A stretch of 64,000 nt of DNA from Moniliella sp. 'wahieum' (GCA_003971905.1 RSEE01000004.1:496001-560000); one strand, 5' to 3'. Shown: positions 15,492 to 64,000, numbered from the stretch's first letter. Made by a program: numbers and translations. The notes: generated by a model not told the origin, from the letters alone.

Positions 15492-15520
15492 TGATGCATG
15501 ATGCATGATGCATGATGCAT
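15492..15520. repeat. Heptamer array (TGATGCA)4
   Basis: TGA at 15492, 15499, 15506 and 15513. Confidence 0.9.
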
Positions 15521-23334: not shown

Positions 23335-23526
23335 TGAAAGTTGAACGTTGAAGGTTGAACGTTCAACGGTTGAACATATATTTGAACACGTTGAACATTG
23401 AATATTGAATGTTCAAGTTGAACGCAGCGGTTAATTTCATATTTCAACAACTCAGACCTCCAATGTGACATGTGACATGCGATCATCGATCTGCTCGATC
23501 ACTAGTCACCGGTCACCGCTCATCGA
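23335..23526. repeat. Compound heptamer arrays: (TGAACGT)-like, (TGACATG)2 and TCA-CTAG-TCA-CCGG-TCA
   Basis: TGA at 23335/42/49/56, 23392/99/406 and 23466/73; TCA at 23499/506/513/520. Confidence 0.85.
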
Positions 23527-26370: not shown

Positions 26371-29300
26371 TTAAGTCGTCGTGTCGGACATAGGAGACGG
26401 AGAGAACCGATCGCCATGCTCCAAGGGGAGAGAGGAAATCGGAGACGACGGACGCATACGTGAGGGGCGCCTATGCGCGGGAGCGGGCGGGAGGAAGCCG
26501 TCCAGGGGATCCAGGGGCTCGACTTCGCCATTAAACGGACTGGGGACCGAGGTGAGCACGCTCACGGGTGAAGACGCATCCGACACCTGACCAATGGACG
26601 ACGAAATGAGATCCTGAATTCCCTCGTCCTCGTCTAACTTGTCCTCAACGGCCGCGGAGACTGTCCACGTCATATCCCCGGTGGCGAAGAGAGATCGGAG
26701 GAGGAGACGGGGGGGGGCGCAGGGGTGAGAGCCTCTTCCCCAGGTTGTTCCAGATCGGAGAGGGAAGACGTGTCGCTGAACGTGTCGATGATTGCAGCAA
26801 GGGACGTATCCACCGTTGTACTGGGGTGGTCCCCACCAATGGACTCTTTCCCGTCCACCTCCCCAACTGCTTTCATTCCAAGAGGACCATCTTCAAGGGA
26901 CCCAGCTCTCACAAGGGGTTCATCCTCAAGAGGCTCGTCCACACTCGCTTCCCTCCCCGAAGGTCTCCCTCAAGTGACTCCTCCACAACGGATTCCTCTT
27001 CAAGAGGCTCCTCCACAAGGCAGTCCTCTTCAAGATGATGGTCCTCGTGGAACTCCTCTTCGTAAGGGGTTTCTTCAGGAGGCATCTCCTGAGCAGGCAC
27101 CTCCTGAGCAGGTACCTCTTGAGCAGGCACCTCCTGAGCAGGCACATCTTGAGCAGGCACCTCCTGAGCAGGCACTTCCTGAGAAGGCACCTGAGCTGGA
27201 ATCTCCTGAGCAGGAATCTCCTGAGCAGGAATCTCCTGAGCAGGAATCTCCTGAACAAGAATCTCCTGAACAAGAATCTCCTGAACAAGAATCTCCTCAG
27301 CAGGAATCTCCTCGGCCGGCTCCTCAATAAGCGTCTCCTCAATATTCCCCTCCTGAGAAGGCTCCTCATTTGCAGACACATCCATAGTAGGCTCTTCCGT
27401 AGCAAGCTTTTGCATACGAATCTCCTCACTAGGCACATCTTGGGCAGGTGGATCATCTTCGAGGGACCCATCTTGCACAAGAGATTCAGCACCTAGACGT
27501 TCCTCCACTCTGGCTTCCTCTGCGAGAAGGTCCCCCTCAAGTGGCTCTTCCACAAGGAATTCTTCCTCGAGAAGGTCATCCTCGTGGAACTCTTCTTCGC
27601 AAGGGGTTTCGTCAAGAGGCACATCCGTAGCGGGCACCTCCTTAGCAGGCACCTCCTTAGCAGGCACCTCCTTAGCAGGCACCTCCTTAGCAGACACCTC
27701 CTGAACAGGCACGCCCTGAGCAGGGAACTCCTCAAGAGGCCCCTTATCAGCCGGCTCCTCAATAAGCGACTCCTCAAGAGACCCTTGCTGAGTGAGCTCT
27801 TCAATAAGCGTCACATTAATACGCTTATCCGGAGCAGGCTCCTCCACAGGCTTCTCCTCAAGAGGCCCCTCCCGAGCAGGCTCCTTCATAGGAAGCTCAT
27901 CCTGAGAAGGCACCTCCTTAGCAGGCACCTTCTCAGCAGACACCTTCTCAGCAGACACCTCTACAACAGGCTGTGCCTTAGCGGGCTCCTGTTCTAGAGG
28001 CTCAGCACGAGGCTCTTGCCCAAGGGGATCCTCTCGCGTTTCCCCCTGACCAGGATCACTCAAACGGGATTGATCTAGAGGTACTGCGGAATAGGCGCCG
28101 CCTCACCCGGCTCACTTGGCGAGACTCCACCTGCCGTAAAATCTCCGCAGGAGGCTCCGACTTGCGATGCTCTCCTCCTCTCGACACCCTTCAACATGAG
28201 CCTCCTCAGCATGAATGCCCCGATGAAGATGCTCTTCCTCCAGGTGGCGTACCTACGCGCGGCTCACCCACATGTGGGCTTTCCTCCAGCGCTTGATTCA
28301 CGGGTGACTTTGCCTCCATTGGGACGGTTGCGCCCGAACCTTCGGCTAATGGGTCCGTCAAAGTCAACGAGGCCGAGGAGACGAAGGACGCCGCACCCTG
28401 TGGGGTTGGCACCTCCTCGGTAGCAGAGAGTTCCTCGCCTTGGTAGTGGGAGGCAGGCACTGCAAGCATGGCAGTGGTTTGCCCCGCCTCAGATGAGACA
28501 GCGTCTTTCATCGGCTCCATAGGAGGGTGGGAGGGAGAGGCGGCTGGGGGTTCCAATGACGGTACGACGCAGTCCTCCTTCTCAACTGAAGGATCCACAG
28601 TGGCCGGCGTGGTTGTTGGCAGGATTAGCTCCCCGTCCGCTTTTTCCACTTCCTCCATCTGGCTGGCAGATGGTTCGGGCCCAGAGGCGGGTTTGGGTGC
28701 AAATGGTGCAAGGGGCGATGATCCCCCTCATGTTGGCAGGTGCGTCCCCTGAGGAAGTGGGGACCATAGGCAGAGGAAATGGACCTGCCATTTCGGTGCT
28801 CACCCCTGGGACTACGGGGGAAGCAGGGGTAACCGTCACGTCCATCAACTCACTGGAGGGATGACCTGGCTCGGCGATAGGGAGAGTTGTAACCAGCTGA
28901 GAGGAAGGGTCGGTATTTAATTCAGCGGCAACGGAGACGGGCGCATCCTCCGTTCCTTCCATGGCAGAGACGGTGCGGGGCTGTTCAGGGAGGCACATAT
29001 TCAGTTGTGAATGCGTATGTGCCTCTCCCACTACGTTGACCTCGAGTGCGGGGGGTGCTGGTCGTGCTTCAGCACTCCCCTGGTCGGTGGACGGTATCCT
29101 GAGCACCGGTGATTCCGTTTTGGCGGCGGCAGGGATCGTCCTCGTGGTACCATGGGGGGCTGAGTAGTGGTAGTACTACACCCGGTATGACGTTGGGAAG
29201 CATCGTCTTCAGCCACGCTGGCCACCGGCATCACACTTTCATGGTCCTTGGGCGCCAGAACATGTTGGCTTTTGTTCTTTCCGTTCAACTCGTGAGGTCT

Positions 29301-30970: not shown

Positions 30971-31180
30971 GTCGGAAACGAAGGGGAGACGCGTGCTCCA
31001 GAGTTCGACACTGCAAGCGCAGAGGGAAAAGGAGACAACGGCGATGGTGGTGGCGATGGAGTTGAAGAGTAGTCCGCCGTGCCCCGCCGCTAGCGCTAGC
31101 AGACGCAGCGGCGACAACTCTGGCACACTAGTCATAACCCTACCCTACCCTCTGTCGTGTCTGCTATGCCACGTCGCCTG

Positions 31181-31228
31181 TGACATGTGACATGTGGCAC
31201 GTGACGCGTGAAGCTTGAAGATGCATGA
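31181..31228. repeat. Mixed-spacer heptamer array
   Basis: TGA CATG TGA CATG TGG CACG TGA CGCG TGA AGCT TGA. Confidence 0.85.
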
Positions 31229-31937
31229 GCCTGAGGTCGGGGGTTTATCCTTAGTAGCCAGGCTAGCAACACTTCCCCCCAACTCCGGCAATTTCCCCAC
31301 CACATCATATTTTCTTCAGCCACACAAACTCCATCCCTGTTCTCCGCTCGGGGCCCCACCTTTTATGAGGATGGCCCAGTCATGAGGCCAAGACGGCAGG
31401 TGTGAGGCGATACGACAAGCGAGAGATTTCCGCGGTGAGACTGCCCTCGATGTGCAAACAAATGCCGGTGTATACACGCGTAGGCTTCTCGGAAGTCAAA
31501 GAGGGACAGCAAACCAGACCAGCCGTATAGCATCGTAACGCGCGAGTAATGCGAAACGCGCAACGCGCCAACGTGGGTGGGCCAAAAAATAAATGACGGC
31601 GGGAGAGGTAGGACAGGTGACCCGGATGGGCGCGCGATCGGGACAAAGGCCAGGATTGCGATTTCACTAATTTCACTTCCACACCGGGGCCAGCCGGCCG
31701 TTTGGAAGGCGGGGCCAGTAGGGTTGGAGGCAAGCAAGCGCCCTGCTGGAATTTCTAAGCGGGGCCCGGGCACGGGGCGGTGCTCACCTATATGCCTGAC
31801 AGCGCACGGCCAAAGCCGGCACCGGCACAGGACGAGTGTCCTGCCCGGACGGCCCCGTGGCCGCTTCTTCAGGCTGGGGCTGGAGGCGCTTGGGCTGGCG
31901 GTGCTTTGCGAGGCTTTGCCCGACACCCTCCACCGCC

Positions 31938-38350: not shown

Positions 38351-38745
38351 TCACGTGACGCGTGACGGGGCATGGCGATGCAGGAATGCATGGGGTGATG
38401 CATGATGCATGATGCATGGACCTCCTGGTCCTGCCTCGAGGCTTGGCGCTTGAACGTTGCAAATCGGAGAAGCACATGCCACATGCCACATGCCACCGGC
38501 CGCATGCCGCGTGTCCCAGAGCCGTCGGCGCATGCAACTTTCAACCAAGCGCACCCTCCGGGCTGCCGGGGTCCGTGCGCAGCGGGGGCGCAGCACGGGG
38601 CCAGCGTCCCTGGGCATCGCACCGCCCGGCTGTAGCCGACAGCGCTGCTATATGCTAGCCCATCATGCATGGCGCATGACGGTGACCGGTGAGTGTCCTG
38701 TCAGAGTGGCCGTGACGCGTGACGATGCGATCGATGACTAGTGAC
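38351..38745. repeat. Heptamer arrays upstream of SPE3-LYS9
   Basis: TGA CGCG TGA (38356), (TGATGCA)3 (38396), CCA CATG CCA CATG CCA CCGG (about 38479), TGA CGCG TGA and TGA CTAG TGA (38713-38745). Confidence 0.85.
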
Positions 38746-38911
38746 TACTCGCAGCCAACGGAGAAAAGCTGATACGAAGACTGGACAGACCGGCACGGCG
38801 CCGCAGTCGCAGCACTCCAGCCAGCCTCCCTACCACTCGGCATCGCCAGCGGTGGCTTTTTTCTTCTTCTTCTTCTGCCTTGCTGCTCTGCCCCACCACC
38901 TCCCTTGCGCC

Positions 38912-41221
38912 ATGGCCCAATTCTCCCACCCCCTTATCCGTGACGGCTGGTTCCACGAGATCAACTCCCAGTGGCCTGGCGAGGCCATGGGCCTCCAGGT
39001 CGTCCGCATCCTCCACCACGAGCAGAGCAAGTTCCAGGATGTGCTCGTCTTCGAGAGCACCACCTTTGGCAACGTCCTCGTCCTTGACGGTGTCATCCAA
39101 GCCACCGAGCGCGACGAGTTTTCGTACCAGGAGATGATCGCCCACCTCCCCCTGGCCAGCCACCCCAACCCCGAGCGCGTGCTGGTCATTGGCGGTGGCG
39201 ATGGCGTGCTGCGCGAGGTGGTCAAGCATGACTCGGTCAAGGAGGCCGTCCTGTGCGACATTGACGAGGCTGTGCCTCGTGTCAGCAAGCTGTACCTGCC
39301 CCACATGGCTCAGGGCCTGACGCACCCCAAGAGCACGGTGCACATTGGCGATGGCTTTGCCTTCCTCAAGCAGCCCGAGAACAAGGGGGCGTTTGACGTG
39401 ATCATCACGGATTCCTCCGACCCTGTGGGCCCAGCTCAGGCGCTGTTTGAAAAGCCGTACTTCCAACTGCTCAAGGAGGCGCTCAAGCCCCGGCGGACAC
39501 ATCTATACCCAGGCCGAATCGCTCTGGTTGCACCTTCCCCTGATCCGCGAACTGCGTCAGAGCACCAAGGAAATCTTCTCGGTGGCCGACTATGCCTTTA
39601 CCACCATCCCCACCTACCCCTCGGGCCAAATTGGCTTTGTCATCTGCTCCACCGAGCCGACGCGCAACGTGCGTGTGCCCGTGCGTGAGGTTCTGGGTTG
39701 CAAGTACTACAATGCCGATGTCCACAAGGCGGCCTTTGTCCTCCCCGAGTTTGCTCGCGCGGTCATTGAGGAGGGGCGGCGGCGCCGGGCCCTGTCGTGG
39801 CCTCGGGTGATGGGGGCCCCGCGTCCCGTGACGCTAAGAAGATTCTTCTGCTGGGCTCGGGCTACGTTGCCCGTCCCTTCGCCGAGTACGTTCTGCGTTA
39901 CCCCGAGTACAGCTTGACGGTCGCATCGTCGCGGTTGGCCAATGCCCAGCGCCTGGCTGAGGGTCTGGCGCGTACGACGGCCACTTCGGTTGATGTGAAC
40001 AACCATGCTCTGGCCGAGCTGGTCGGGCAGCACGACATTGTCATCTCGCTCATCCCCTACATTTACCACGCCAAGGTGATCGCGGCGGCGATCGAGAAGA
40101 AGGTTGATGTGGTTACCACTTCCTACGTCAGCCCTGCCATCCGCGAGCTGGCGCCCAAGATTAAGGCCGCAGGCATTACGGTGATGAACGAGATTGGTCT
40201 CGACCCTGGTATTGACCACCTCTACGCCGTCAAGGCCATTGCCGACATCCACGCTCAGGGAAAGAAGGTGAAGGAGTTCTATTCGTACTGCGGTGGCCTT
40301 CCTGCCCCCGAGGCGGCGGACAACCCGCTGGGATACAAGTTCTCGTGGTCCTCGGTGGCGTCCTGCTTGCCCTTCGCAACACGGCCAAGTTCTGGCAGAA
40401 AGGAAGCAAGGAGCCGGTTACCATTCCTGGCCCCGAGCTGATGAAGTCGGCCAAGCCTTACTACATTAGCCCCGCCTTTGCCTTTGTCGCGTACCCCAAC
40501 CGTGACAGCACGCAGTACCGCGAATGGTACAACATCCCCGAGGCTGAGACGGTGGTGCGTGGCACGATGCGCTACCAGGGCTTCCCCGAGTTTGTCGAGC
40601 ACTTGTCAAGCTCGGCTTCCTCGACGACTTTGCCAAGCCTTACCTCACCCTGCCCAACATCAAGTCCTGGGCTGACATTTTGGCGGCCGTGACCGGCTCG
40701 CAGAGCACGGACCCAGCTTCGCTCGCGGCCGCGGTGCGCAAGATTGTGGAGTTCAAGACGGAGGAGGAGGCGGACATGGTACTCCGTGGTCTGCGCTGGC
40801 TTGACCTCTTTAGCTCAGATGTGACCGCCACTGTTCGTGGCACGGCGGAGCAGGAAAAGGAGCACCAGGCAACCTTCTCGACTCGCTCTGCGCTACGCTC
40901 GAGCTCAAGTGCCAGTACGGCCCCGAGGAGCGCGACATGGTCATGCTCCAGCACAAGTTCGTCACCGAGGACAAGGATGGTAACGAGGCGACCCTCACCT
41001 CTACCTTGCTCGACTTTGGCGTGCCCAACGGCTTCTCTTCGATGGCCAAGACGGTGGGTGTGCCGTGCGCGATCGCCACCAAGCTCATCCTGGAGGGCAA
41101 CCCCGGACTCAAGAAGCCTGGCGAGATTGTCGCCCCGTACTCCCTCGACGTTACGGAACCCATCCGTCTCGAACTCGAGAAGGAGGGCATTCCTCGAGGA
41201 GCGCTGGATCTAAGTGGATGA
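38912..41221 (+). CDS. SPE3-LYS9: Spermidine synthase - saccharopine dehydrogenase (reductase) fusion protein; several indels
   Basis: [21 protein letters not shown]...VLVIGGGDG...[15 protein letters not shown], followed without intergenic space by [12 protein letters not shown]...[14 protein letters not shown]...[23 protein letters not shown]...[13 protein letters not shown]. Confidence 0.95.
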
Positions 41222-49725: not shown

Positions 49726-52330
49726 GCTGGGGATGCTGAGCGGATCCAGGCGGATGTCGAGGCCGGGGTTGATGGCGATGGAGTTGGAGTTGGGGATGGT
49801 GGGGAGCGCCAGGGGGTGGTTGGACCCAACCCTGCGGCCTAAGGCCTGTCCAGCCGAAGCACCTCACCGGTGACGGTCACCCCGGCAAGAGTGAGAGGAT
49901 GGAGTCTAGAACGTTCAGGCTGCACGCTCAGCGCGCCCCACGGCGCCAGTGTTGCCGCGTCGTCCGAATATCAACACCCACCCGGTGTTGCAATCTTTCA
50001 GTCGGCGGCTCCTCCAGCTCAGCCCAACCAGATCAACGCATTAGGCGTGTTGAAACCGCCATGTCACCCCCCCACGCGCCCACTGGCAAGACCCAACAGC
50101 ACCAAGCCATCGCGGCTGAACGGTGTAATGCATGGGAAGCGTGCATATCGACTTCACTAGGAGACGGCCGTCGGACCCGCTTTACACTTGCCGTTTGTAC
50201 GTTATCCGATGAACAAGATGCGGGTTCCTCCTGCCGAGAGACCATCGAGGAAGGAACTGAATCTCCGCACCCAGTGGTCGGAATGGAGGCAGCAGGCAGC
50301 GCGAGAAGAAGAACCAAGCGAAAGTAAGAGAGTGAATGAGACCCAAACAGCTGAAACGTAACTGGTTTTGGGTACAACAACCCTTGTACCTTTCCCTGTT
50401 TATCCAAGCCAATGTCATACTAACCGCCGGGCGTGTCAAAAGACCCAGAGAAAATGCCAGTAGGAAGCGAACCGCCGATCCTTGTCGGCGTAGGGTCATC
50501 GCTCGAGCCCCAGCTGGGTCTTGTTCATGCATAGCTGTACGACAGCCAGAAAAACGGATATAGTATTAGTGTAGTTGTAGAGCTCTGCGTCGCGGTTGAC
50601 ATCGATCGGACCGTCAAGCTATTTCTTTAACTTCAGGGGATAGTTTTCCTGGGGAATTCGTCCACGCTAGCACTCCTCGTCTTACTGCAAACGGTTCTCA
50701 TTGGTGGCCCTCCTCGGGCACTATAAACATCACATGATGCGTAATAGAGAGGGGTATGGGCAGCTTCCGGAAAAAACAGACAGCGAACGTCGTCCATACT
50801 GCGCAAATAATGTAGATGCACCTCGGGAGTTGTAAGCCCACACATGCAGGACACTGGCGAAAGTCTTTTATGTCCTTTTTATAGCCAGCAGGAGCTGGGT
50901 TCGTTATGAGTACGACCCGATTCCCGCTTTTCAGTCCCAGGTATAAAAACCGACTTTAACATATGACACAGTCGGGGGCTGAGATCCGGGAACATTGGAG
51001 AGGAAAACCAGAGCAAAGACGATGTCGAGAACTGCAGCAAACAGAAGTGTGTTGCGACGGTGACCAGTTTCACCGATGGCGGCCACTTCTGACCTAACTA
51101 GCTCTCACTAGTCCGAGGCTCCGCGGGCTACTGAAGAGGCTGATTGATGCGCGCACCAGCGTAAGCTAAGGCCGTAGCCTTCTCCTGTAGCCCACGTCCG
51201 TCTTCCTGTCACCAACGCCTATCTCTCACCCGCAATCGATGGCCTACGCTACTGTCCTAAACGCTTCAGTATCCATTGCAGTCTCCATAGCCGGGTGGAC
51301 CAGGACATCGCTGCAAGTGGACCTATCAAGCAAGGGAACAATCTGAACAAGGGGAGGAGTGAGATGCGCATGAGACAGAGAAATTGGAAATGTTGGGAGC
51401 GAAAGATCAGCCAGCCGATGATACCAAACCGTGTCTGTGGTGCCCTTGTTTCGCTTGATTTGCCGCCTTTTCTTGTAGGCTGTGTGGGCTGGTTCGATTG
51501 TCGGTTACCAGTTACTAGCCCTCATCTGGGCAAAAACCGTGTGTTTTTTATATGGATCCGTCATCGATTGGACATGAGTCCAGCAGCATAAGCGAAAAGG
51601 TCGCGCGGCCGATGATGCACGGAGGAACAACTCTCAACATCTCGCCGTCTGGGGCCAGTGATAGCCCCGAGAGTTTTCTATGTTAGTACTTATTAACAGA
51701 AGAGGGAAATGGAGGAAAGGATGAGCATTCATATTCATCGAGGGGAAGGAGGCGAGGTATATGTACCTCGGAGAGAAGAGAACGTGCGAGCTGAGTCACA
51801 CGGAGGAAGAAAAGGGAGCATAATATAAAAAGGGAAAACAGGGTCTAGAACAGATCAGGGTCCAGCTACCCTATACTGTGGTGACTATAGTATGTGTGAC
51901 CACAGGTGGGTCTGATGCCTCCAGTAGTTATGATCAGATCCCTGTGTTGACCGTGTAGTTGCTTAAACCTCCCGCCCCTAAGGATGATGTACGGCCGCCG
52001 AACCAGGGGGGTAGCCCTGTCCTCTGCTCCATTTGTCCCCCGCATATTGGCGGCGTATATGGTGGCGAGCCGTGCTCGCACAGTTCCTTGTTTCTCTCTG
52101 TGGGGGGCGACGGATATTTTGACACCGTCACTGCCCTCTTAGATCTTAGAACGGACCCCGTGCCCAGCGAGGCATTCTTCGGGTGGACACTCTAAGTAAC
52201 CACAGCTGGAACGCGGGGGGTCAGTACTCAGTCAGCTAGTCGGGTCTCCCCATCGCCCCTGCACAAGGACTTTTTTTGACCATATGTCCATCCGGATCCA
52301 GTGACTACGGAGGGGAAAGGTGTTGAACGT

Positions 52331-52485
52331 TGAGTGTTGAGTACGTTGAGTATACTGAGTACGTCGAACCCCTGATGGGTCACACACATAATATATCCAC
52401 ACACTGGATGTGCCTACTCTACTATGATTATGACCCCCGGTTCTGGATCTTCCTTGAAGCTTGAAGCTTGACCGGTGACGGTGAC
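52331..52485. repeat. Heptamer arrays
   Basis: TGAGTAC-type units at 52331-52362; TGA AGCT TGA AGCT TGA CCGG TGA at 52455-52478. Confidence 0.85.
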
Positions 52486-55361
52486 CCCTTTATGTGTCTC
52501 TTTCCCTTCCTCTCGTATATACGGCACCACACTCTGGCATGCCGGCCTGAATGAACGCCATCTCTTCGGCAACCAAAGCATCACACTCCCAGTTGATGCA
52601 TGATGCCCAGTGTAATAGGGGGGAGGACAGAGCTCAAAAGTACAGCTTCAAAAGCAGCTGTGCCGCGTGGCCTTCATTGTTTTGGGAAAGCCGGAAGAGA
52701 GGGCAGCATGGGTGGGCTCCATTGCACGTGTCCCCTTGCGTGTCTCAAGACAGACGGAGACCTGGGTGGCTGGTTCAACCATAGGACCGTCCAGCCGTTC
52801 ACGCTGCGCTCATATTCACCAGCCGCTTCTCAGGGGGTGCGCCATGGGGGCGGCTGTTCCTCCGCTGTTGAAACGCCTCCTGTGTCGTTTTTCGTTCATC
52901 CTCGCGCACCAAGGCGCCACTGGCATAGCTGAGAACTGCAGAATCGCAGCGTCGATTTTGGCCTGGTCCAATGGGCCGCAGAGAGAGGCCAGCAAAACAA
53001 TATAGGGGGAGGGTCAGTTGCCGCAGGTACCCGCCGACTCAATGAAACTCATTAGCCCATCTGGACAGCGACTGTCACGCGCGCAAAGAGGAGAGGGGAT
53101 GGTGCACGGCATACGCTTATGGGTGAGGCTGAGGAATGGGAAAGATTCGACGCCATGCATGACATGGATGAAAAGCAACAAGCCACAGAGGGGCGCCGTA
53201 ACGCGGAACGCGTACTACCGCGCAAGACAGATGCGCCCATCCATCCAACGTTGAATGTTGAGCGTACCAGGGTGTGGGGCTCCGCCTGAGCAGTCAGCGG
53301 CTGACTAGTGACTGCCAAAGCGCCAACCACCAAAAAGCGGGGAAGAGCAGCCAAGGGCGGAGTGTGAACTCGACGTCCCCGGTGGCGGTGGAGACAGTGT
53401 GCGGTCCGAGTCACTAGTCAGCGCCACCAAACGTTCAATGTTCACTGCTCCTGCTAGCTTACTCAGTACTGCGTACCATTAATCATCGAGTTCACTATCA
53501 ATCCCAGCTGGTTCCTCCCCGATTCTGCAACGCGCCATGAAATTTAAAATGGAAACGCTGCTCAGCTCCATCGGTGGATGCGTGTGGAGTGTGAAATGGT
53601 GTGAAAACCTTCTGCGGCGCCAGACACGCAAAAAGTTTGATTTGACTCCAGGAACCGTGTGGGGCGCTGCGCGCTGGCTGGCGCTGGCGGCGGGGCAAGG
53701 CGGAGCCCCACAGCTTGGTCACCAACGCCCCCAGCGCACCCAGCACAGCCAGCACACCTTGGTTTAACGTTTGCCGGTTGCCGGTTACCGGTATCGACCA
53801 GTGGCTAGTGGTGCCCGGTGCCCGGTGCCCGGCGCCCCTCTCCAGATGGAGAGAGCGGAGGAGAGCGGTGTTGGTGCGCGGGGCTTGCCTGGCCTTCAAT
53901 GGCCCATGGCGGAGATTGCGGCAATGATCGAGTCGGGAGAGGGGCTGGCGGTGTGTGTGGCACTGTGGGGCACGTTGCAGCATGGCCCGTTCTTGATCTG
54001 GCATCTTTGAATCAGCCCGAAAGCTTAAATCTAATCAGCGCCCAATGGCCGCGGAGGATCGATGATGCATGTTGCGTGATGCATGATGCGTGCCATGGGA
54101 GCCTAGCATGCATGATACGCATCGGTGGCCAGGCCAGACAGCGCCCCAGCCTGGATCGGCCCGTCGCACGGAGCTCCTTGCAGTCGACGTGGTATCGGTG
54201 TGGTCGGTGCGTTCACGCGTTCACGCGTTCACGCCATCCCCAATCGCGACGCCAATCGCAATCGGCGGGTGCTGTGGGCGGTGGAGACGCCCGTCTCAAG
54301 TGCCTGGCCCCTGGCGCTGCCGCCAGAGAGCGCCGTGCCGCAGTAGGCAGCAATGCACCGGCGACAGTCCGCAGTCCCCACCGCACCCTATTGCTGCCCC
54401 CTCGTCCCCTGTGGATGGTACATCGGTGACCCCTCGGTGACCATCATCGATCGTCATCGATCATCGATCAGGGCCCAGCGCCAGGCGAGTCATCAGCGAT
54501 CATCCATCGTTCGTTGGCGTTGCTCTTGCTTGCTTTGCGATTCACATCCTCCAGCGCTGGAGCGCAATCAATTTACCAGGATCAATATTCAATCTGCGGG
54601 GGAAGCGGGGAAAACAAGGGGGTTCGCTGGTGTCGTTGGAAATTGGAGCGTGCCAGGCGCAGGCCGGAACACAAGAGCGTGAATGTGGGCATTGGGATGA
54701 ACGATGAGATTGAACATGCTGAGAGAATTACGACGGTAGGATCGAGGGGCGGGGGAATATTGGGGCCAGTTGCCGCCTCGATTCTTGGCACAAGGCCTGC
54801 TCGTGAGGAGGGCGGCCTGCGTTGCGGCAACCAGGCGGTTGGGGCCGGGGGCTGGTGCTGGGACCGTGGGGGAAGATGCCGAGCACCAGCCATGCGCCCC
54901 GGGGGATGTGACACACCGGCGGCCATTTGGGGGCGGCAGGGGGGCGCAGGCGGGCTGGCGGGCAGGGGGGCAGGGGGAAGCCCGTGGTGGGTGGACGTGG
55001 GGCAGCACAGGGGCAGTGCCTCTCCGCATTCTTCTCCTGCCGCCCCGTGCCCGGGCGTGCGCTGGCTGCCGCATGCGCAGTCCCAGCCGACACTGGCGGG
55101 GTGCGCAGCAGCACGCAGCAGCAGCACGCCCGCTCTCCGCCAGCCAGCCCGACGGCGCTGCGCTGCAGGGCGCTGCTCTGCGCGGCGACTGGCTGCCCAC
55201 CCCCCCGCCTCCATCTCGGCGCCGCACACCCCACCAGCCGTCCCTCCGCCTCACCTGCAGCCCCACCACCACCGCCTCCCCCTGCTGCCCGCCCTTGCCG
55301 CCCGCCGCCCTCGCCCTCCGCGTCCTCGGCCCGCCCCCTGCCACCCAACGCTCCTCTGCTC

Positions 55362-57358
55362 ATGCCCACCTCCGATGCTGCTGCCAGCGGCGGTGCCCCC
55401 GACCGCAGCAAGATCCCACGCCCCTACCAGTGTCCGCTCTGTCCCCGCGCTTTTATCGACTGGAGCACCAGGTGCGTCCTCCCCGCCCCCTGCCCTCGTC
55501 CCATCCTAACCCCCCCTTCCTCCCCAGACACGCCACATCCGCACCCACACCGGCGAGAAGCCCCATGCATGCCAGCACGCTGGCTGTGGCAAACGCTTCT
55601 CTCGCTCCGATGAGCTGACCCCACATGCGCATCCACGCCAATCCCAAGCGCACCCGCATCATCCAGCCTCCGCCCCCTTGGCTCGCCCCCGCCCCACGGG
55701 GCAGGCCAAGTCGCCCGACCTATCTGCGTCCGATGCGAATCCCGTCCCCCTCGTGCCGGCCACATCCGTACCAATGGCAATGCCCATTCCCGTACCCCCC
55801 AGGCTGCGCCCCGCCCTGCGATGGAAGGCAGCTACCCCATGTCGTGGGAGGAGTACCATGCTGGTGCCCCTGCCCTACCTATCGGTAACCATCCGCTTCG
55901 TCCTCAGGCAGGGCCGTTCCTGTTCGTAAAGGATGCCGATGTTAGCATGGACCCCGAGCTAGAGCGCGACGCCGCTTACTCGCAGTCCCATCCGCCGGTA
56001 AGAGGCGGGAACAATATGAATGCGTTGGCGATGTTGGCTGCAGAGGAACTGCAGGAGCTGAACCAAGCCACTTCCCCCACCGGCGCCGTCACTTCGCCCG
56101 GCTCGGCCCCGACCCGGCCGGCGTGCGAGCACGAGGGGTGCATGGACTCGTACCATGAACAAATCGCCTCGGCCGTGCGTAGTAACTTTCCTGTCCCTGC
56201 CTCGGCTCATGACAGACGAAGTCCCCACTATGCCCACTCGGCACACCAGCCCGTGTCGGGACCGCGCTCCTTCTCGGGTCCTTCTTATCGGACGATGCGC
56301 CCCCCACCCGAGTCGGTGGTGAGTTCGACGGCGCCTTCGCCCAGGATGAGTGCGCTGGACCGCCCGGGCTTTGGGGACGACCCCGAGTCGGATGGAGAGC
56401 TGCCGCCGCCGCAGGCATACAAATATGGTTCGTCGGTTCCCTCGTCCCACCGTGTCACGGGCAGTCGCGGGCCCGGCACATTTTTCACCCCTTCTGGTTC
56501 CCCCGTACTTGGTCCGCTGCGCAACATGAGTCTTCGCTCGGCGCGGACCATGCCAAATACCCCGCACACTTCCCGCCCCAGTTCGCCCGTGCACCTGCAC
56601 CACGCGCGCCAGCCCAATCTCGCTTCTCTCTCCCCCACCCTCGCCCCGGCCGGGTCGGCGCAAGGTTTGGGCGTGTTAGTATCGGATTCTGGACCGATGC
56701 ATACGCCCAGTACCGGTCACCATCCCGTTCACCGTCACCGTCCATCCCACCCTTACAGTCCAGGCTCGACCTCGGTCAGCTCGGAGGCAGCACGCGCGCG
56801 GGCTGGGGTGGCGCGCTCTCTCCAATTGACTGCGCTCCCGGTCGGGGGCGAGGAGGGCGAGGTAGGCGCGCGTCCTTTGGCCCGCTCTCGCTCCTTTGGT
56901 GCCCATCGGCGCGAAGACGAATTTACTTCGATGTCCACTGCGCCGAAGCGGCGAAAACGCATTTCGGACTTACTGTCGGCCGCGCCAGGGCCGCAGCCCT
57001 CGGGGCCACCCACCCTGCGCACCGCTCGCTCTGCCCCCGGAAGTCCACGTATGACTCGTGGCGTGACCCCGTCCTGCGCGGCTCGGCCGAATCGTCGCCG
57101 GCTTCGGAACCGCGCGAGTTGCCCGGGTTGACCTACACCAAGTCTGCTGCCTCCTCCATCTCGCACATTCCGCCCGCCACATGCACCAACTCGCCCACCG
57201 AGACAAGGGCCGTATCACCATCTTCCTCCTCGGCCTTTTCCTTGGCCAAGTATAAGTTGCCCCCCTTGAGCGCCATGACGCCGATCGTGCCGACGGAGCA
57301 AGCTGCGTCGCCGGGCCCGGCCGCGTTGCCGACGCTGCGGACGCTGTTGAGCGAATAG
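55362..57358 (+). CDS. creA: C2H2 carbon catabolite repressor CreA/Mig1 (intron about 55472-55527; indels)
   Basis: [36 protein letters not shown]...[12 protein letters not shown]...HMRIH; FTPSGSP; C-terminal LPTLRTLL effector-like motif. Confidence 0.9.
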
Positions 57359-57703
57359 TTTCCTTCTTGCACCTATGTACCTTGTAGGGTTTGCCCTGGC
57401 CGCGTCTCCCCTCTTCTTGGTTCTCCCTGAGTACCTTAGTACTCTTGCCACTCCAGGCGAAAATGTGGAGGGGTGGCCTGCGCAGGGATTCTTGTCGGCT
57501 ATCCTGTTCAGATCTCTTACGTGTGACGCGTGTTCCAATGTATCATGATGCGCATCGCTCTGCGCCCTTGGGGCGCTTCCCAATCGCAGGGAGGGGAAGG
57601 GGTTCGAATGTGCCCCCTCCCTTCGGAAGCCAGGAAAAATGATTTAGGAGGTGGCAAGCATCTGTAAAAAATTCAAGGAAAAAAAGAGGACGCCCTGTCG
57701 GGT

Positions 57704-57784
57704 CGAACGACGCAGGGGTCGAACCTGCAGCCTCCTGATTACAACCTGTCGTAGTCAGACGCGCTACCATTGCGCCAGCCGTCC
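57704..57784 (-). tRNA. tRNA-Arg(ACG) with a 9-nt intron (57740-57748)
   Basis: GGACGGC TGGCGCAATGGTAGCGCG TCTGA CT-ACG-A [CAGGTTGTA] A TCAGG AGGCT GCAGG TTCGACC CCTGC GTCGTTC G folds as a cloverleaf with A and B boxes; T-run terminator at 57679-57686. Confidence 0.93.
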
Positions 57785-58192
57785 TTACTTGGTCAGGGGA
57801 GCATACTGTCCAATTGTCCTGCTTCTGCGTTTCTCGTATCGAAACTCCGCACGACGAAAAATACTGGGAAGAGATGGGCGAGAAGAGCGCAACAGGCCTA
57901 AGATGGCAAATGTAGGCAGTCCTTACCACATGAGAGGCACAGGCGCAGTGCTGGATGCATTATGTACCGTCTGGTCCCGCTTGCCCACCGTTGGAACCCC
58001 CAAAGTCTATAGGAACAGTACTCGTGTGTTTCCTACAGCGCTCGCTGAAGACTTACGTGCCACCCTTAAACCTCCATTTTCATGCATTATGGGCGTTCAC
58101 GACTGGTGGGGCAGGAGGTGCGCAGGTGCTAGTGTACAAGAGGGACATTGAGTCGGCCTGGTGGCGCTGCTTTTACCATCCGCCGCACACAT

Positions 58193-59184
58193 CTAAGCAT
58201 GCCGCTGGTGTACTGCGCCACAAGCATAGCATGGTCACGCTCATACGGCTCCAGCGTCAGTTGCTCCCGTGGCCGGAACATCTCCCCTTGCAGCTTCTTG
58301 ACCTCCGAAGCAAACACCGCCTCGGCGGGGGCAGTCGAGTCGATACACGACGCCTTGATGGAAATGACAACGTGCCCCCCGTCCTTGAGGAAGTAGTGCG
58401 CGTTGAGCGCTACAATACGGGCCTGGTCTGGCTGGGCCACATCGGCAAAGATCACGTCCACCGTGTCCACCAGCATGCGGTACTTCTGGGGATGACGCGC
58501 GTCCTCGATGATGGGAATCACGTTGGTGCGCTTCTTGGCCATGTTGATCAAATCCCGCCCACTGCGGTGGGAGAACTCAACAGCGTATACTACACCCGTC
58601 GGCCCCACCACGTCGGCAACGTGCGATACGGACGTTCCGGAAGCAGCACCAAGGTAAAGCACCTTGGCACCCGGCTGGATATGGATGTGATCCAGACCAC
58701 CGAGGATACCAGCAGCCAACTTGGAACGGAACGGATTCCACACACGGTACTCAACCTTGGCGCCGGGAACACCGTCATCCTGGACCACGTCGACTGAAAT
58801 ACGCTTCTCGCCGTAGACCGAATCACCAGGAGCCAAGTTCTTGGTCACGAGCAAGTGCTCTTTGCCCTCGGCAATGAACACGCCAGCGTGACGGTGAGGC
58901 TTGACAATTACTTTGCTGCCTCCACGGGCACCACCACGGGGCGCACCACGTCCACGAGGGGCCCCACGGCCACCGCCACGAGGGCCACGCGTCCGCCACC
59001 ACGGGCGCCTAACCACAAGGAACGTCAGTCGTCTGGACAATGATCCCGCGCAGATACCAATTAACGTACCACGGCCGCCAGGAGCGCCACGGGCGCCGCC
59101 GCGGCCCCCACGTCCAGGGGGGCCGCCACGTCCACCACGGAATCCTCCGCGTCCACCACCACGTCCACGGTCACCAAAGGCCAT
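58193..59184 (-). CDS. NOP1: Fibrillarin, rRNA 2'-O-methyltransferase
   Basis: RGG-rich N-terminus with intron 59009-59069; [19 protein letters not shown]...[17 protein letters not shown]...[13 protein letters not shown]...[16 protein letters not shown]...LEPYERDHA. Confidence 0.97.
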
Positions 59185-59600
59185 TTTGTCAGTCAAAGCA
59201 AAAAAAGTGTGGAGGCTGGTTGTGGTTGAGTCGGCCTGCCCTGCTTGGACTTTGCTTCGAATGGCCAAGTCAAACGGCAAAAATTTAATGCTTACGTATG
59301 GACTCTGTTCCGCCAGCGGGGGCAGCGGAAACGAGCCAGCAAGTACTTTTTGAAATGTAAAGCCATCTTTTGATCTTGCGCGTTCAACTTCAGCCGAAGG
59401 CCAAAAGGGCGACGGAAGGACGTTTGATTGCACTGAACTTATCCCACTACCACCGTTGTTTATACAAGTTTCGCGTAGCTTCCCTTGCCTTTGAGCTTGA
59501 CTAGCTTAACTGGACGCTTCAAAACAACGTTCGGACTCAGTCGCTCAAATGGCAGCCCAAATACCAGGCTTGGCCAGCGTCCGATATGTTGGGACCTGCG

Positions 59601-59835
59601 GTCCCGTACATAGGCCAAGGCGCCTTAGGCCTTATCACCCTTCGCCCCTCATTGGCCTCATTAATCATTTGACCTCCGAAGCCTCCACGTGTATACTCAG
59701 GCTTTTGTTTGAACCCTTGTCTCATCTAGGTGTGGCATAAGGCTTAGAGCTTAGACCCAACCACCACCACCGCGATTGCACTGCTCTACATTTCCAGAGG
59801 TTCATCGCCCAACCCCCTGGGTTCCTCCGGCCTTA
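59601..59835 (+). repeat. LTR-like direct repeat, copy 1
   Basis: Aligns by eye with 62637-62846 from GTCCCGTACATAGGCCAAGGCGCCTTA to GGGTTCCTCCGG. Confidence 0.9.
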
Positions 59836-62636
59836 CAGAGTTACAATCTTCTTGACGCTCATTCCTGAGTCCTCCCCATTCACCCCACTCCTCCATCTAA
59901 CCCATTCACTTCCACTCCACCCAAGTCCTGGCTCAATTCCTCGATGCCACCTCGTGCTGCTCCCGCCGCCGAGGACACATCTCGTGTTACTCCCGTGCCC
60001 GAGGCCATCCCCACTCCTACCCCCGACGATACTGCACCCATATCGTCATCGCAGACGAACGGCATCCAGGCTAATATCTCCAACATTGTCGACGTTCTCC
60101 GCCCCGTATTTGCCTTTTTCAACGCTGGGAAGATCACCTTCGAGGAGTTCCAACAGGCGGGTACTTCACACGGGTTTTCGCTCGAATCGACGATGCAAGC
60201 CTTCACACGGATTGCCGGGGAAACATCGGTTTTCGCATCGAAGCCGAGCCACGATAAGAACCCTTGGGCGCTACCCCCCCACAAACTTTTGCGTGAAGCT
60301 ATCCGCACCGATGTGCCGTACAACGAACGCCTACACATGAACGGCTTTTTGGCTATGGGCCGAACACTTCTTGCCTAGTCTCCACATCATCCCACAAGGC
60401 CGCGAACACCTGGAACAAGGCTCATCTCTGAGTGGGTACAATGAGACCCTTGATGCCCTTTTAGTCAAAGTGCTACTCCCATGGCTGGATACCGACGTTG
60501 CCCAGAGTCTTACCCTGACGGGCACTCCAGCCCTCGGCTCTGCATACTTTCAGACCCTGCGTAGTGTGTACGGCTTTGTGTCCGACGCTCAGTTGACACA
60601 CCTGTACGCCAAGATTGCAACGATTAAGATGGGTTCCAAATCCGGCCGCCAATACCTCAACGAGTTCCAAATGGCCGTTCGCGAATACGAGCTGAGCGCG
60701 AAGACTGAGTTGGGTGAGCGGACTCTGGCACACATACTGCGGGCAGGTGTGCCGGATAGGATGTGGCTGAAGATGCATCGCAACAGCAGTTACGCCGAGG
60801 TATGCACAGCGGTGAATGAACTCGACGCCTTTGTTGATGAGCAGGTCCTGGTGCAAGCCATACCAACCCCAACCTCCTCGCGCGCTCTACACCCAGCAAC
60901 ACTGTCAGCACTGGTACCAGTTGCGGAAGAGGCCACGGCAGCGGCGGCAGTTATCGAGGAGGATACCACGGCGGTCACTGTGGTGATAGCCGGGTACGGT
61001 CCTCCCCGACAGGCGAGTCAATCTCGACTGCCCACGCACGATTCCCGATGCTTCCCTCCACAACGCCTGAGACGCCCGCTGCGCCTGAGCCGGAATCGAT
61101 CGTGTCCACAACCCTCCTCACCCTTACAGGGCCAGCGCGGGAGGCCCTACGCCAGCCAACCTCCCTGCACAACACGATTCGAGTGCGAGACCATCCGTAT
61201 TTAATAAACGAAGCGCGTTTATCAATCTTCGCCCACACCGCGAGCCCATAGCGGTGGCAAACGGGCCGATCGCATACACTAAAGGCATTGGCACCATTTC
61301 TATGTACATCCAAACCCAGAACGGAGCTCCTATCCGCATCCACCTTCCTGGCAGTTTGTACTGCCCTACCTTCCCGACCAACCTCCTAAGCGCTTATCAT
61401 CTCTCTGTCGCAGGCATTGGCAGCCGGATCCCTCCAGGTGGCCATGGCCTCTACCTTGGTCGACACGGCGAACCCCTCGCCGCCGCCGATTCAAGCTATT
61501 CCCTCACTCTTGCGTCTAATACGTCAGCCACAGCCAACAGCGCCACTTCGCCACTCAACCTTGAAGCAACCCTGGTCAAGGTGAAAAACGCCCACATCCG
61601 ATGGAACCATGCACCACTAGATCAACTTTCAACTCTCACGTCGGACGACCAGCATTCGAACGGGTCAGGAGTGGCGACATCGTTTTAGTCCGGTCCTCGT
61701 GGCACTGTCCCCATGCGCACTAAGCAGAGCCACTGCCCCACCCCACGCTACGACTGGACGCCCAATCCGAACCATTCGCCCTTTCTCTCTCCTTCACCTC
61801 GATGTCCTCGACATATCCCGCCAAAACGGTGGGGGTCATACGTACGCCCTTATCATTGTCGACGATTTTACGCGGTATACCTGGACGCTACCCTTGGTGT
61901 CCAAGAGTGATGCCACAGCCCAACTTCAGACCTTTATCCGGCGAGAGCATCGCCAACATCCCGACCGCCCCCTTCAGACTGTCCGCTCTGACAATGCGCC
62001 CTGAACTTACCACCGCAATGGACGACTTTTACTGCGAACTAGGCGTAGTGAGGGAGCGCACCAATCCTGGCGAAAGTGCGTCCAATGGGGTCGCCGAACG
62101 CGCCATAAGATCGATTACGGATCGCGCTCGACTCATGGTAGTCGCCAACCGATTGGTTCCCGACGAGTGGTGGGAACACAGCTTGTTGGCAGCCACATAC
62201 GCACACAACCAGTCGCCGCCGATGGCACTGGGTGGTGACAGCCGATTTGTCCGATACATGGCTTCAAACCTTCCCTTCGCATGCGCGGTTTTGGCACCCT
62301 TGCTTACCTGCACCTATTGCCCAACCAACGCGAGGGCGGCATACTTGGTCCGCGGGCCGTCCCAGCTATGTTGGTGGGTTACGGGCACGGTCACGGTTCG
62401 AAAGGGTGGCTCTTTGCCATCCACCAGGATGACGGCCAGGTTGGATTCCGCTGGAAAAAGCCGTCCACCTGGACACATGTTCCGTACACCACCGAATATC
62501 CCACGCACTTTCATCTGTCCCCCCTTGTTCCTCCTGTGATGGAGAGGTGAGGGGGGGCGGAGGGATGGGTGCTGTGGGGCAGTCAGACAGCTCTCCACCC
62601 CGTCGGCGTGTGCGTTTTGCGATCGATGAATCGCAG

Positions 62637-62846
62637 TCCCGTACATAGGCCAAGGCGCCTTATCACCCTTCGCCCCCAGGCCTCATTTGACCTCCGAAGT
62701 CTCCACGCGTGTATACTCAGGCTTGTTCGAACCCTGTCTCCTCTAGGTGGGCATAGGCTTACTAGACTCAACCACCACCACCGCAATGCATTGCTTTACA
62801 TTTCCAGAGGCTCATCGCCCAACCCCTTGGGTTCCTCCGGTCTTCA
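62637..62846 (+). repeat. LTR-like direct repeat, copy 2
   Basis: Aligns by eye with 59601-59835, with substitutions and indels. Confidence 0.9.
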
Positions 62847-64000
62847 CGATATACTATGTGCTAGTTCTACCTGCGCCTTCCGTGCCGGCTCACCGTTCGC
62901 GGTCGAAAGGCTGCCATCCGTCCGTCTCCGTCATCGATTCCACCTCTCCATCTCTTTCCCCCTACTATATACGCACGAACGAATGACAACCATTGTGCAA
63001 GATAAAATGCTCTTAAATGATGGTGAGAGGTTCCATGTCGGGATGGGTCGCATAGTCGAAGTGCAAGATGCAAAGTGGTAAAATGCAGGGAGCAATCTCA
63101 CCTAGTGAGTCCAAGTTGGGTGGAGAGGGACGGTCATTCCGGTCCCAGCAATGCAGCAGCAGAGCCGTTGGAGATTTCGTGCTCGACCGATGGGGTTTGA
63201 AAGGCCAAATGTCAAAGACGCGAGCCAACGCGACAAGCTGGGTGGTAGACAGATCGCATACCTCGCCCTAGGATCCACCACTTCCTCGGGTGAGTGGGCA
63301 AAGTCCGTGTTGTCCTTAGCGAGACGATGAACAATTTCCTCCGCACCAGGTGCAACATGGCGCGGGAATCGAGGATGGAATGGCTGCGCAAAACAAGGAC
63401 GTTTTCATCAACCAGTCAAACGTTGGGTAGAGGTCCACCGGCACCAGAGGATCCTGCGCGGAGTGATTGTAACGAACGCAAGACGCTGTCGGTTCAACCC
63501 CGACGCCGCATTGTCGCTTTCAGGCCCGCCATTGGTCTTGACCAAACGAGAGTAAGCCGATTTGCCCACAATCATTTGTTCACTGCCATAAACGTGATCA
63601 TAAAGCGGCAGGAACTCGTCCCCGCGCATGTGGTATCCACATGCGCAAGGGCGTCCGTCAGCACGTTCATTGGACCGAGGTGATCCCCGGCGTGATCACC
63701 AATCGGTCGGCCAAGCTTTCGGTGATGATCAGGTGCATTTTGACCCTGCCATAACGAAAAAGCCATGCGCGAGAGAGCCAATAGCCGAAATCATTTGGAC
63801 GACGAGTTGCTCCCCCAAAACGCTGTTCGGGATCGTCATAAACACTTCCAAGGGAGACGCCACTTTCCAATCCGGAGTGTCGAACGAAAGGCTGTCGCTA
63901 GGTTCACCTGGGAAGGACAATGCCAGTATCACGCAACGGGTAATCAAAAGCGCCACCCTTTTCCAAGTCGGTGTTGTAGTGGCCCACTCCCAAGCCGAAT

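Follow-up and report, generated by a model that had tools for sequence, protein, structure and literature searches.

Palindromic heptamers anchored at T-N-A in a basidiomycete, and a possible origin in hairpin-type break repair

Two copies of an LTR-like repeat in the same orientation, the first of them upstream of a fibrillarin gene, show two 7-nt indels, each of which pairs a duplicated 5-mer with two inverted nucleotides. The locus raises the question of how such heptamer units arise, and whether the heptamer arrays in nearby promoters were made in the same way. The window, by which we mean the whole stretch of 64,000 nt that was analysed, is nuclear and GC-rich (58%) and comes from a basidiomycete of the Ustilaginomycotina. 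Among its genes is a spermidine synthase-saccharopine dehydrogenase fusion, a chimera typical for basidiomycetes, whose best named relatives are in Tilletiaria, Tilletia, and Violaceomyces (88% identity over the matched part).

The LTR-like repeats and their heptamer differences

The genes and repeats that frame the problem are as follows.

31452..31500, minus strand: third, older fragment of the LTR-like repeat (82% identity over 49 nt), which served as outgroup
38738-41210: chimeric spermidine synthase/saccharopine dehydrogenase gene, with at least six TNA-palindrome sites in the 400 nt upstream
58132..59505, minus strand: fibrillarin gene (PF01269, E 2e-105), with repeat copy 1 in its upstream region
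59598..59834, plus strand: LTR-like repeat copy 1 (long form), starting ~165 nt upstream of the fibrillarin ORF start
59944..62550, plus strand: degenerate Ty1/copia-like interior, with Pol_BBD, rve, and SH3_retrovirus matches in several frames
62633..62844, plus strand: LTR-like repeat copy 2 (short form), delimited by local alignment to copy 1

The two direct repeats, in the same orientation, flank a gag-pol interior with all three of these domains between them. It is reasonable to regard them as putative LTR copies; that they are the ends of one insertion is a reading only. A domain search of ORF translations found no reverse transcriptase or RNase H in the interior, which ends after the integrase SH3 domain and is therefore a deletion derivative or remnant. 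The flanks outside the two repeats (GGACC and CGATA) share no 5-bp target duplication, a weak failure given that the repeat boundaries are uncertain. A purine run precedes copy 2, ~60 nt from the start of homology. The fragment at 31452-31500 brings the repeat family to at least three copies in 64 kb; it shares its intergenic zone with heptamer sites at 31179-31220.

In the local alignment of copy 1 to copy 2 (59598-59834 vs 62633-62844), 199 of 210 ungapped columns are identical, and the same alignment contains 11 substitutions and 12 indel events. The indels are one-sided, with copy 1 the longer in 11 of 12 (binomial p 0.006). The indel:substitution ratio of ~1:1 is far above that usual for repeat decay, and at 12 indels to 11 substitutions such LTR comparisons are too indel-rich here for dating by standard clocks. 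The stretches of copy 1 that bear on the heptamers, with their counterparts in copy 2, are as follows.

59623..59634, plus strand: CCTTA-GG-CCTTA (TTA-GGCC-TTA), with the 5-mer at 59623-27 and 59630-34 and GG at 59628-29; copy 2 has a single CCTTA, GCGCCTTATCAC
59647..59662, plus strand: CCTCATT-GG-CCTCATT, in which a 2-nt inverted spacer parts two direct copies of 7 nt; copy 2 reads CCCCCAGGCCTCATT
59658..59669, plus strand: TCATT-AA-TCATT (TCA-TTAA-TCA), with the 5-mer at 59658-62 and 59665-69 and AA at 59663-64; copy 2 has a single TCATT, CCTCATTTGAC
59742..59755, plus strand: exact doubling GCTTAGA GCTTAGA (TAG-AGCT-TAG; GCTTAGAGCTTAGA); copy 2 reads GGCTTACTAGAC

An earlier note on this DNA had reported an extra GGCCTTA at 59628-59634 and an extra AATCATT at 59663-59669 in copy 1. 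Reading the sequence and aligning the copies placed both exactly there, with every quoted letter correct, and at both sites the indel is, as that note described it, a 5-nt duplication whose 2-nt spacer reverse-complements the end of the 5-mer next to it. The direct repeat at the first site can also be read as 6 nt, GCCTTA-G-GCCTTA. The AATCATT indel is part of a compound net 10-nt difference, copy 1 having CCCC-TCATT-GGCC and copy 2 CCCC-CA-GGCC just upstream. The GCTTAGA doubling is a third heptamer doubling in copy 1, absent from the earlier note.

A 188-nt contig from one public sequencing run is identical to 59645-59832, so that the long form over this interval, including AATCATT and the GCTTAGA doubling, is real sequence and not an assembly artefact. 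This was the single contig at ≥99% identity when the run was compared with 51000-64000, the remainder of these 13 kb being without cover at ≥95%; a proposal drawn from contig cover, that the LTR is multi-copy with the long form as the family norm, was dropped because missing cover is unusable as evidence. An exact-pattern scan of metagenome contigs with a 25-mer of the repeat gave no matches.

The third fragment allows some inference of polarity. Its alignment to copy 2 runs through CCTC-TTTGAC and its alignment to copy 1 stops at TTTGAC, indicating that the fragment is without AATCATT. With two of three copies lacking the unit, AATCATT is more likely to be a gain in the lineage of copy 1; the evidence consists of four bases that match in a single fragment of 82% identity, and loss by slippage can easily recur. 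Of the differences between the copies that fall within the fragment, it has the copy 1 state at three (a TT indel and two substitutions) and the copy 2 state at the other, a CG indel, and both indels that it polarizes are deletions (TT lost in copy 2, CG in copy 1), so deletion is common in this repeat. The reservation that polarity was unproven is thereby eased for the AATCATT site, which is weakly resolved toward insertion, and stands for the GGCCTTA site, where nothing polarizes the change.

Palindromic heptamers across the window and in other fungi

Both LTR forms, TTA-GGCC-TTA and TCA-TTAA-TCA, belong to a class in which a TNA is followed by a 4-nt palindrome and the same TNA, and of which the window holds 45 matches against 2.4 expected. 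Counting any four nucleotides between two TNAs with the same N gave 83 sites (36 expected); the non-palindromic ones were at background (38 vs 33.5 expected), so that the entire excess is palindromic. No enrichment was seen for other lengths of palindromic spacer between TNAs (2 nt, 7 vs 8.1; 6 nt, 2 vs 0.4; 8 nt, 0 vs 0.2). The centre base is kept, TGA..TGA or TCA..TCA occurring 40 times (2.0 expected) and mixed TGA..TCA 5 times (2.6 expected). A tally of the 45 matches showed 14 of the 16 possible 4-nt palindromes in use, with TGCA units at eight loci.

The more general pattern of a 5-nt direct repeat plus two inverted nucleotides (5+2) was found 24 times, compared with 5.0 expected from 30 dinucleotide shuffles. 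TNA stands at the end of the 5-mer distal to the inverted pair in 13 of the 23 listed 5+2 sites, the other 10 being near chance, and the minimal form, TNAyz followed by the reverse complement of yz and a second TNAyz, occurs 13 times against ~0.3 expected. In all 13 it is the yz side, never the TNA side, that supplies the inverted nucleotides. When direct-repeat length was set against number of inverted nucleotides in a grid, the sole outlier was the combination of five and two (50 vs 0.3, both strands); forms with 0, 1, 3, or 4 inverted nucleotides were essentially absent, the one exception being a period-8 array.

The extent of the period-7 repeat beyond the core proved informative. Among two-core sites it was (0,2) in six cases, (2,0) in six, and (1,1) in none, a restriction to (0,2) and (2,0) that has p = 0.008 under random erosion of longer arrays, and none of 31 two-core sites had zero extension beyond the TNA-palindrome-TNA core. 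In every case, then, one half of the palindrome is a copy of the flank, which excludes constant transposon termini as the source of the filler, and since the flank always templates the flipped dinucleotide, a hairpin or P-nucleotide-type origin is the most natural reading.

Exact 7-nt tandem doublings numbered 32 (3.3 expected), 17 of them containing an A-NNNN-T 6-nt palindrome (16 of 32 by a separate script), and Tandem Repeats Finder identified many period-7 arrays in the window. These 32 head-to-tail doublings are what a heptamer microsatellite would give, yet there are 12 minimal one-sided 5+2 forms and no symmetric ones; neither the one-sided forms nor the short forms of the LTR are what whole-unit change in an existing palindromic unit would yield. 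Single odd palindromes were barely enriched (NN-TGA-NN, 106 vs 70; NN-TCA-NN, 76 vs 69). Taken with the grid, the counts against expectation bear out the proposal that the LTR heptamers share their form with the promoter arrays: the 5+2 rule describes a real window-wide class that includes those arrays.

From 80 metagenome loci encoding relatives of the fusion gene, the 31 that reach 4 kb (together 380 kb) served as a control of other fungal DNA. The ratio of palindromic to non-palindromic TNA-N4-TNA was 20:242 in the control and 45:38 in the window (p 2e-18). Exact 7-nt doublings occurred at 0.105 per kb in the control and 0.5 per kb in the window, and the fraction of doublings with a 6-nt palindrome was 5/40 vs 16/32 (p 0.0007 for that fraction). 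Among 5+2 sites, 22 of 284 were inverted in the control and 23 of 74 in the window (p 9e-7), and 2 of 284 vs 13 of 74 carried TNA (p 4e-8). The nearest relative, whose SPE3 match has 81% amino-acid identity in its best segment, had no signature sites in 13.5 kb. The signature is thus at background in other fungal loci and specific to this lineage, and the heptamer class is a lineage-specific, TNA-anchored signature at ~20-fold over expectation. A literature search across main texts found no description of fungal TNA-palindrome heptamers.

The 45 motifs make up 33 loci in the 64 kb, all of them between recognizable genes or at their edges, with clusters upstream of or between HSP90, adaptin, an MIT-domain gene, ATP synthase gamma, the fusion gene, and fibrillarin. 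Fifteen of these loci fall within the 16% of the window that no ORF of at least 130 aa covers; as such ORFs, many of them spurious, take up 84% of this GC-rich DNA, they are a poor proxy for coding sequence. No motif occurs in copy 2 or in the element's dead interior of 2.66 kb, and two occur in the promoter-proximal copy 1. This distribution hints, in small numbers, at a promoter-linked process.

Possible origin of the heptamer unit

Beside T-N-A, the added 7-nt block consists of a direct copy of the TNA and two flanking bases, plus the reverse complement of those two bases. A loopless perfect inverted copy beside a direct duplication is characteristic of the off-centre opening of hairpin-capped ends, which leaves P nucleotides. 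We therefore favor a hairpin-type break-repair origin for the 5+2 signature, at a probability of roughly 0.45. A transposase-like enzyme, belonging to a mobile element or domesticated, would cut with a stagger centred on TNA and a 7-bp footprint, nn-TNA-nn, and the staggered break would leave both flanks hairpin-capped. Each hairpin would then be opened 2 nt off its tip, which is where Artemis-type opening falls, giving 4-nt palindromic overhangs. End joining would retain one overhang and trim the other, a step that we infer, for a net gain of 7 + 2 - 2 = 7 nt. Were the left overhang kept, GGCC-TCA-TT (CC-TCA-TT) would become CC-TCATT-AA-TCATT; were the right one kept, CC-TTA-TC would become CCTTA-GG-CCTTA-TC. 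Once two units were present, they could expand or contract by slippage as arrays fold into TNA-looped hairpins (arrays of at least three units do fold with TGA triloops, z -2.4 to -3.0), and the arrays would afterwards decay by CpG transitions.

This scheme derives both LTR long forms letter for letter from the short forms. The choice of overhang would produce two mirror forms, which are seen 6:6, and a break centred on nn-TNA-nn would set T and A symmetrically around a free centre base. The two 7-nt LTR differences would accordingly represent the 'with' and 'without' states of a lineage-specific mutational signature, an interpretation that we hold at a little under even odds.

Several observations count against the hairpin scheme. 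It predicts that both overhangs should sometimes be kept, and TNA-palindrome-palindrome-TNA was not found in the window; it also predicts plain non-palindromic 7-bp doublings, of which there was no excess; and the +3 class, TNATNA, was no more enriched than elsewhere (51 vs 38 in the window, 512 vs 389 in other fungi). Moreover, at the density of the window, 33 loci in 64 kb, the genome would have undergone thousands of such events, and no element is in sight. The earlier remark that no responsible transposase is visible in the window holds: a domain search of 130 ORF translations, out of ~181 ORFs of at least 130 aa, together with the ORFs of the element, gave no DNA transposase, and no element with terminal inverted repeats (TIRs) was flanked by an nnTNAnn duplication, the one candidate, with 9 of 12 TIR matches, spanning known genes. 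Arrays of up to ~12 units also call for a second process, slippage, beyond break repair. The earlier view of the arrays as accumulated footprints is hence upheld in that they belong to the same 5+2 class, and falls short in that footprints by themselves do not account for 3 to 12 units. The fullest version of the hairpin scheme, in which an undescribed transposase-like nuclease or a highly active cut-and-paste element breaks promoter DNA at T-N-A, writes the 7-nt unit via hairpins, and so seeds a palindromic heptamer satellite that reshapes thousands of promoters, seems to us rather doubtful.

Other schemes for writing the unit were tried and rejected. Duplication of TNA with 2+2 nt of element ends fits TTA-GG|CC-TTA alone, as the filler always copies the flank. 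Were TNA the loop of a fold-back whose stem varies in length, palindromic spacers of 2 nt and 6 nt should also be in excess, and they are not; 5'-flap fold-back ligation fails likewise on variable length. A simple inverted copy predicts TGA..TCA, found only 5 times vs 2.6 expected. A generic rule of four direct plus three inverted nucleotides with no T/A requirement showed no enrichment (5 vs 6.2), and the +3 class was set aside as being the same as in other fungi.

Among the alternatives, the strongest is a structure-driven microsatellite, in which a 6-nt palindrome plus one base slips via hairpins, the 12-nt forms are eroded arrays, and the LTR differences reflect slippage or microhomology deletions between 5- to 6-nt repeats in copy 2. 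The hairpin folding of the arrays, the presence of long decayed arrays, the shorter state of copy 2 in 11 of 12 indels, and the outgroup fragment, which assigns to copy 2 three of four polarized derived changes, including a 2-nt deletion, all suit it. It does not explain the birth of palindromic units with a fixed TNA, however, and erosion should yield (1,1) as often as (0,2) or (2,0), where 0 vs 12 were seen. Single NN-TGA-NN and NN-TCA-NN odd palindromes would be its raw material and are barely enriched; the two-unit LTR forms fold no better than shuffles (z -0.35); the third fragment is without AATCATT; and the same physics operates in other fungi, where the signature is missing. We consider this explanation unlikely. 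Selection could instead have multiplied TNA-N4-TNA in promoters as predicted binding sites of a lineage-specific factor, in keeping with the position of all 33 loci between or at the edges of genes, the 15 of 33 in the 16% of the window outside ORFs of at least 130 aa, the TGCA units tallied at eight loci, and the two motifs in copy 1 near a promoter against none in the 2.66-kb interior and copy 2. The constant part is just T-N-A, however, and the use of 14 of 16 palindromes implies that there is no single recognition sequence; a spacer that may have any sequence so long as it is self-complementary bears the mark of the process that made the DNA, not of a factor that reads it. Because the signature is also missing from the orthologous region of the 81%-identical relative, and old arrays decay freely at CpG, cis-regulatory selection appears improbable. 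Chance or assembly artefact, conceivable when the finding comprised just two sites, is effectively refuted by the counts (45 vs 2.4; 50 vs 0.3; p 2e-18 against real fungal DNA) and by the independent contig identical over 59645-59832.

The remaining alternative is the one that prompted the earlier note: excision footprints, with P nucleotides, of a Transib/RAG-like element or a hAT element. What survives of it is a flank-templated, hairpin-like 5+2 event, the products having a 5-nt direct repeat and a 2-nt palindromic addition; the named families fit poorly. Transib elements make 5-bp duplications and hairpin the flanking DNA, according to two papers (PMC1131882, PMC5499845), and a 5-bp direct duplication is indeed retained here at the empty site. 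Transib targets are described as GC-rich and symmetric over 5 bp, for example cCASTGg (PMC1131882); the sites here are asymmetric, TNAyz with yz free. The same paper gives 8-bp duplications for hAT and reports Transib from just one fungus, a rust, as of 2005 (PMC1131882); here the period is 7 and the direct repeat 5 nt, with one period-8 array only. The exclusive yz-side origin of the inverted nucleotides (13/13, the TN side never), the near absence of inverted lengths of 0, 1, 3, and 4 outside that single period-8 array, and the lack of any such transposase or TIR, CAC...GTG-type termini included, in the window speak against either family, and we think this account has little chance of being right. 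The 5-bp Transib reading gives the right product and leaves two things unexplained, the location of T-N-A at the far edge and the 0 of 13 TNA-side inversions; a symmetric 7-bp version centred on TNA would remove both problems.

The hairpin reading can also be set beside systems that produce comparable sequences. As in P-nucleotide junctions, namely V(D)J coding joints and the footprints of hAT, Transib, and MULE elements, for all three of which flank hairpins are established (PMC5499845), a loopless short inverted copy of the flank lies between two direct copies. Unlike them, the present sites show a near-invariant 5+2 form with period 7, a T-N-A anchor, no element, and units that grow into arrays; known excision footprints are heterogeneous, with duplications of 8 bp (hAT), 5 symmetric GC-rich bp (Transib), or 8 to 9 bp (MULE). 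PIF/Harbinger-type (PHIS) elements, with TWA or C|TNA|G targets, likewise cut and duplicate T-N-A; TNA cut sites are described for those of basidiomycetes, and the NuwaII group is reported in two basidiomycetes (PMC4482050). Their duplication is 3 bp, however, and their element-end filler would be constant, whereas the filler here varies and copies the flank, with 14 of 16 palindromes used and half of each equal to flank. The small inverted triplications of FEN1/rad27 defects share the direct-inverted-direct order and later removal by slippage over a hairpin (PMC13334657); they span ~150 bp with 30-bp spacers and no reported sequence anchor, compared with 5+2 nt here. Bacterial heptanucleotide repeats of the Xanthomonas/Nostoc type resemble the present units in forming 7-nt intergenic tandem arrays (PMC4692102), but are G-rich, non-palindromic, and prokaryotic, and do not follow the rule of TNA plus palindrome.

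A mutational origin would make the signature an uncommonly clean footprint, with one geometry, one 3-nt anchor, and absence from related fungi. The signature would then reveal a DNA-breaking activity at work in promoters, together with the opening and joining of hairpin ends in a basidiomycete, and would display the birth of short palindromic satellites in addition to their expansion. Gains of 7 nt at TNA would offer mutation studies a directly countable read-out, and for annotation the signature accounts for the heptamer arrays that fill promoters of this genome.

Individual arrays and variants

Individual arrays illustrate the range of the class.

15492..15520, plus strand: (TGATGCA) x4.1 array of the TNA plus 4-nt palindrome class
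23336..23412, plus strand: old (GTTGAAC)n array of ~12 units, with spacers decaying from ACGT to ATGT, ACAT, and ATAT
31200..31220, plus strand: CGTGA-CG-CGTGA-AG-CT-TGAAG, two events of opposite handedness on one CGTGAAG
52453..52471, plus strand: CTTGA-AG-CTTGA-AG-CTTGA, 19 nt made up as 5 + 7 + 7
54209..54234, plus strand: period-8 array TCACG-CGT-TCACG, GCGTTCAC x3.2, with five direct and three inverted nucleotides

The spacer variants at 23336-23412 are the pattern expected of CpG-to-TpG decay, and two inverted TCA units lie inside this array. The sequence at 31200-31220 is exactly reproduced by two 5+2 events, one of each handedness, starting from a single CGTGAAG.

The period-8 array at 54209-54234 is the only clear variant of the 5+2 rule. 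At 52320-52375, copies of GTTGA are separated by AC, GT, GTAC, and GTATAC; these palindromic spacers lengthen as though one site had received inverted dinucleotides again and again. Heptamer arrays with non-TNA cores, TTGCCGG/TTACCGG and TGCCCGG x3, occupy 53771-53832 and have a CCGG palindrome in common; T-T-G and T-G-C may also be accepted as anchors, or the cores may derive from TNA by mutation. Tandem repetition of another kind is seen at 26964-28031, where arrays of a 15-nt repeat (up to 15.7 copies) lie inside a 397-aa minus-strand ORF that, from a weak extensin-like match, probably encodes a 5-residue repeat protein.
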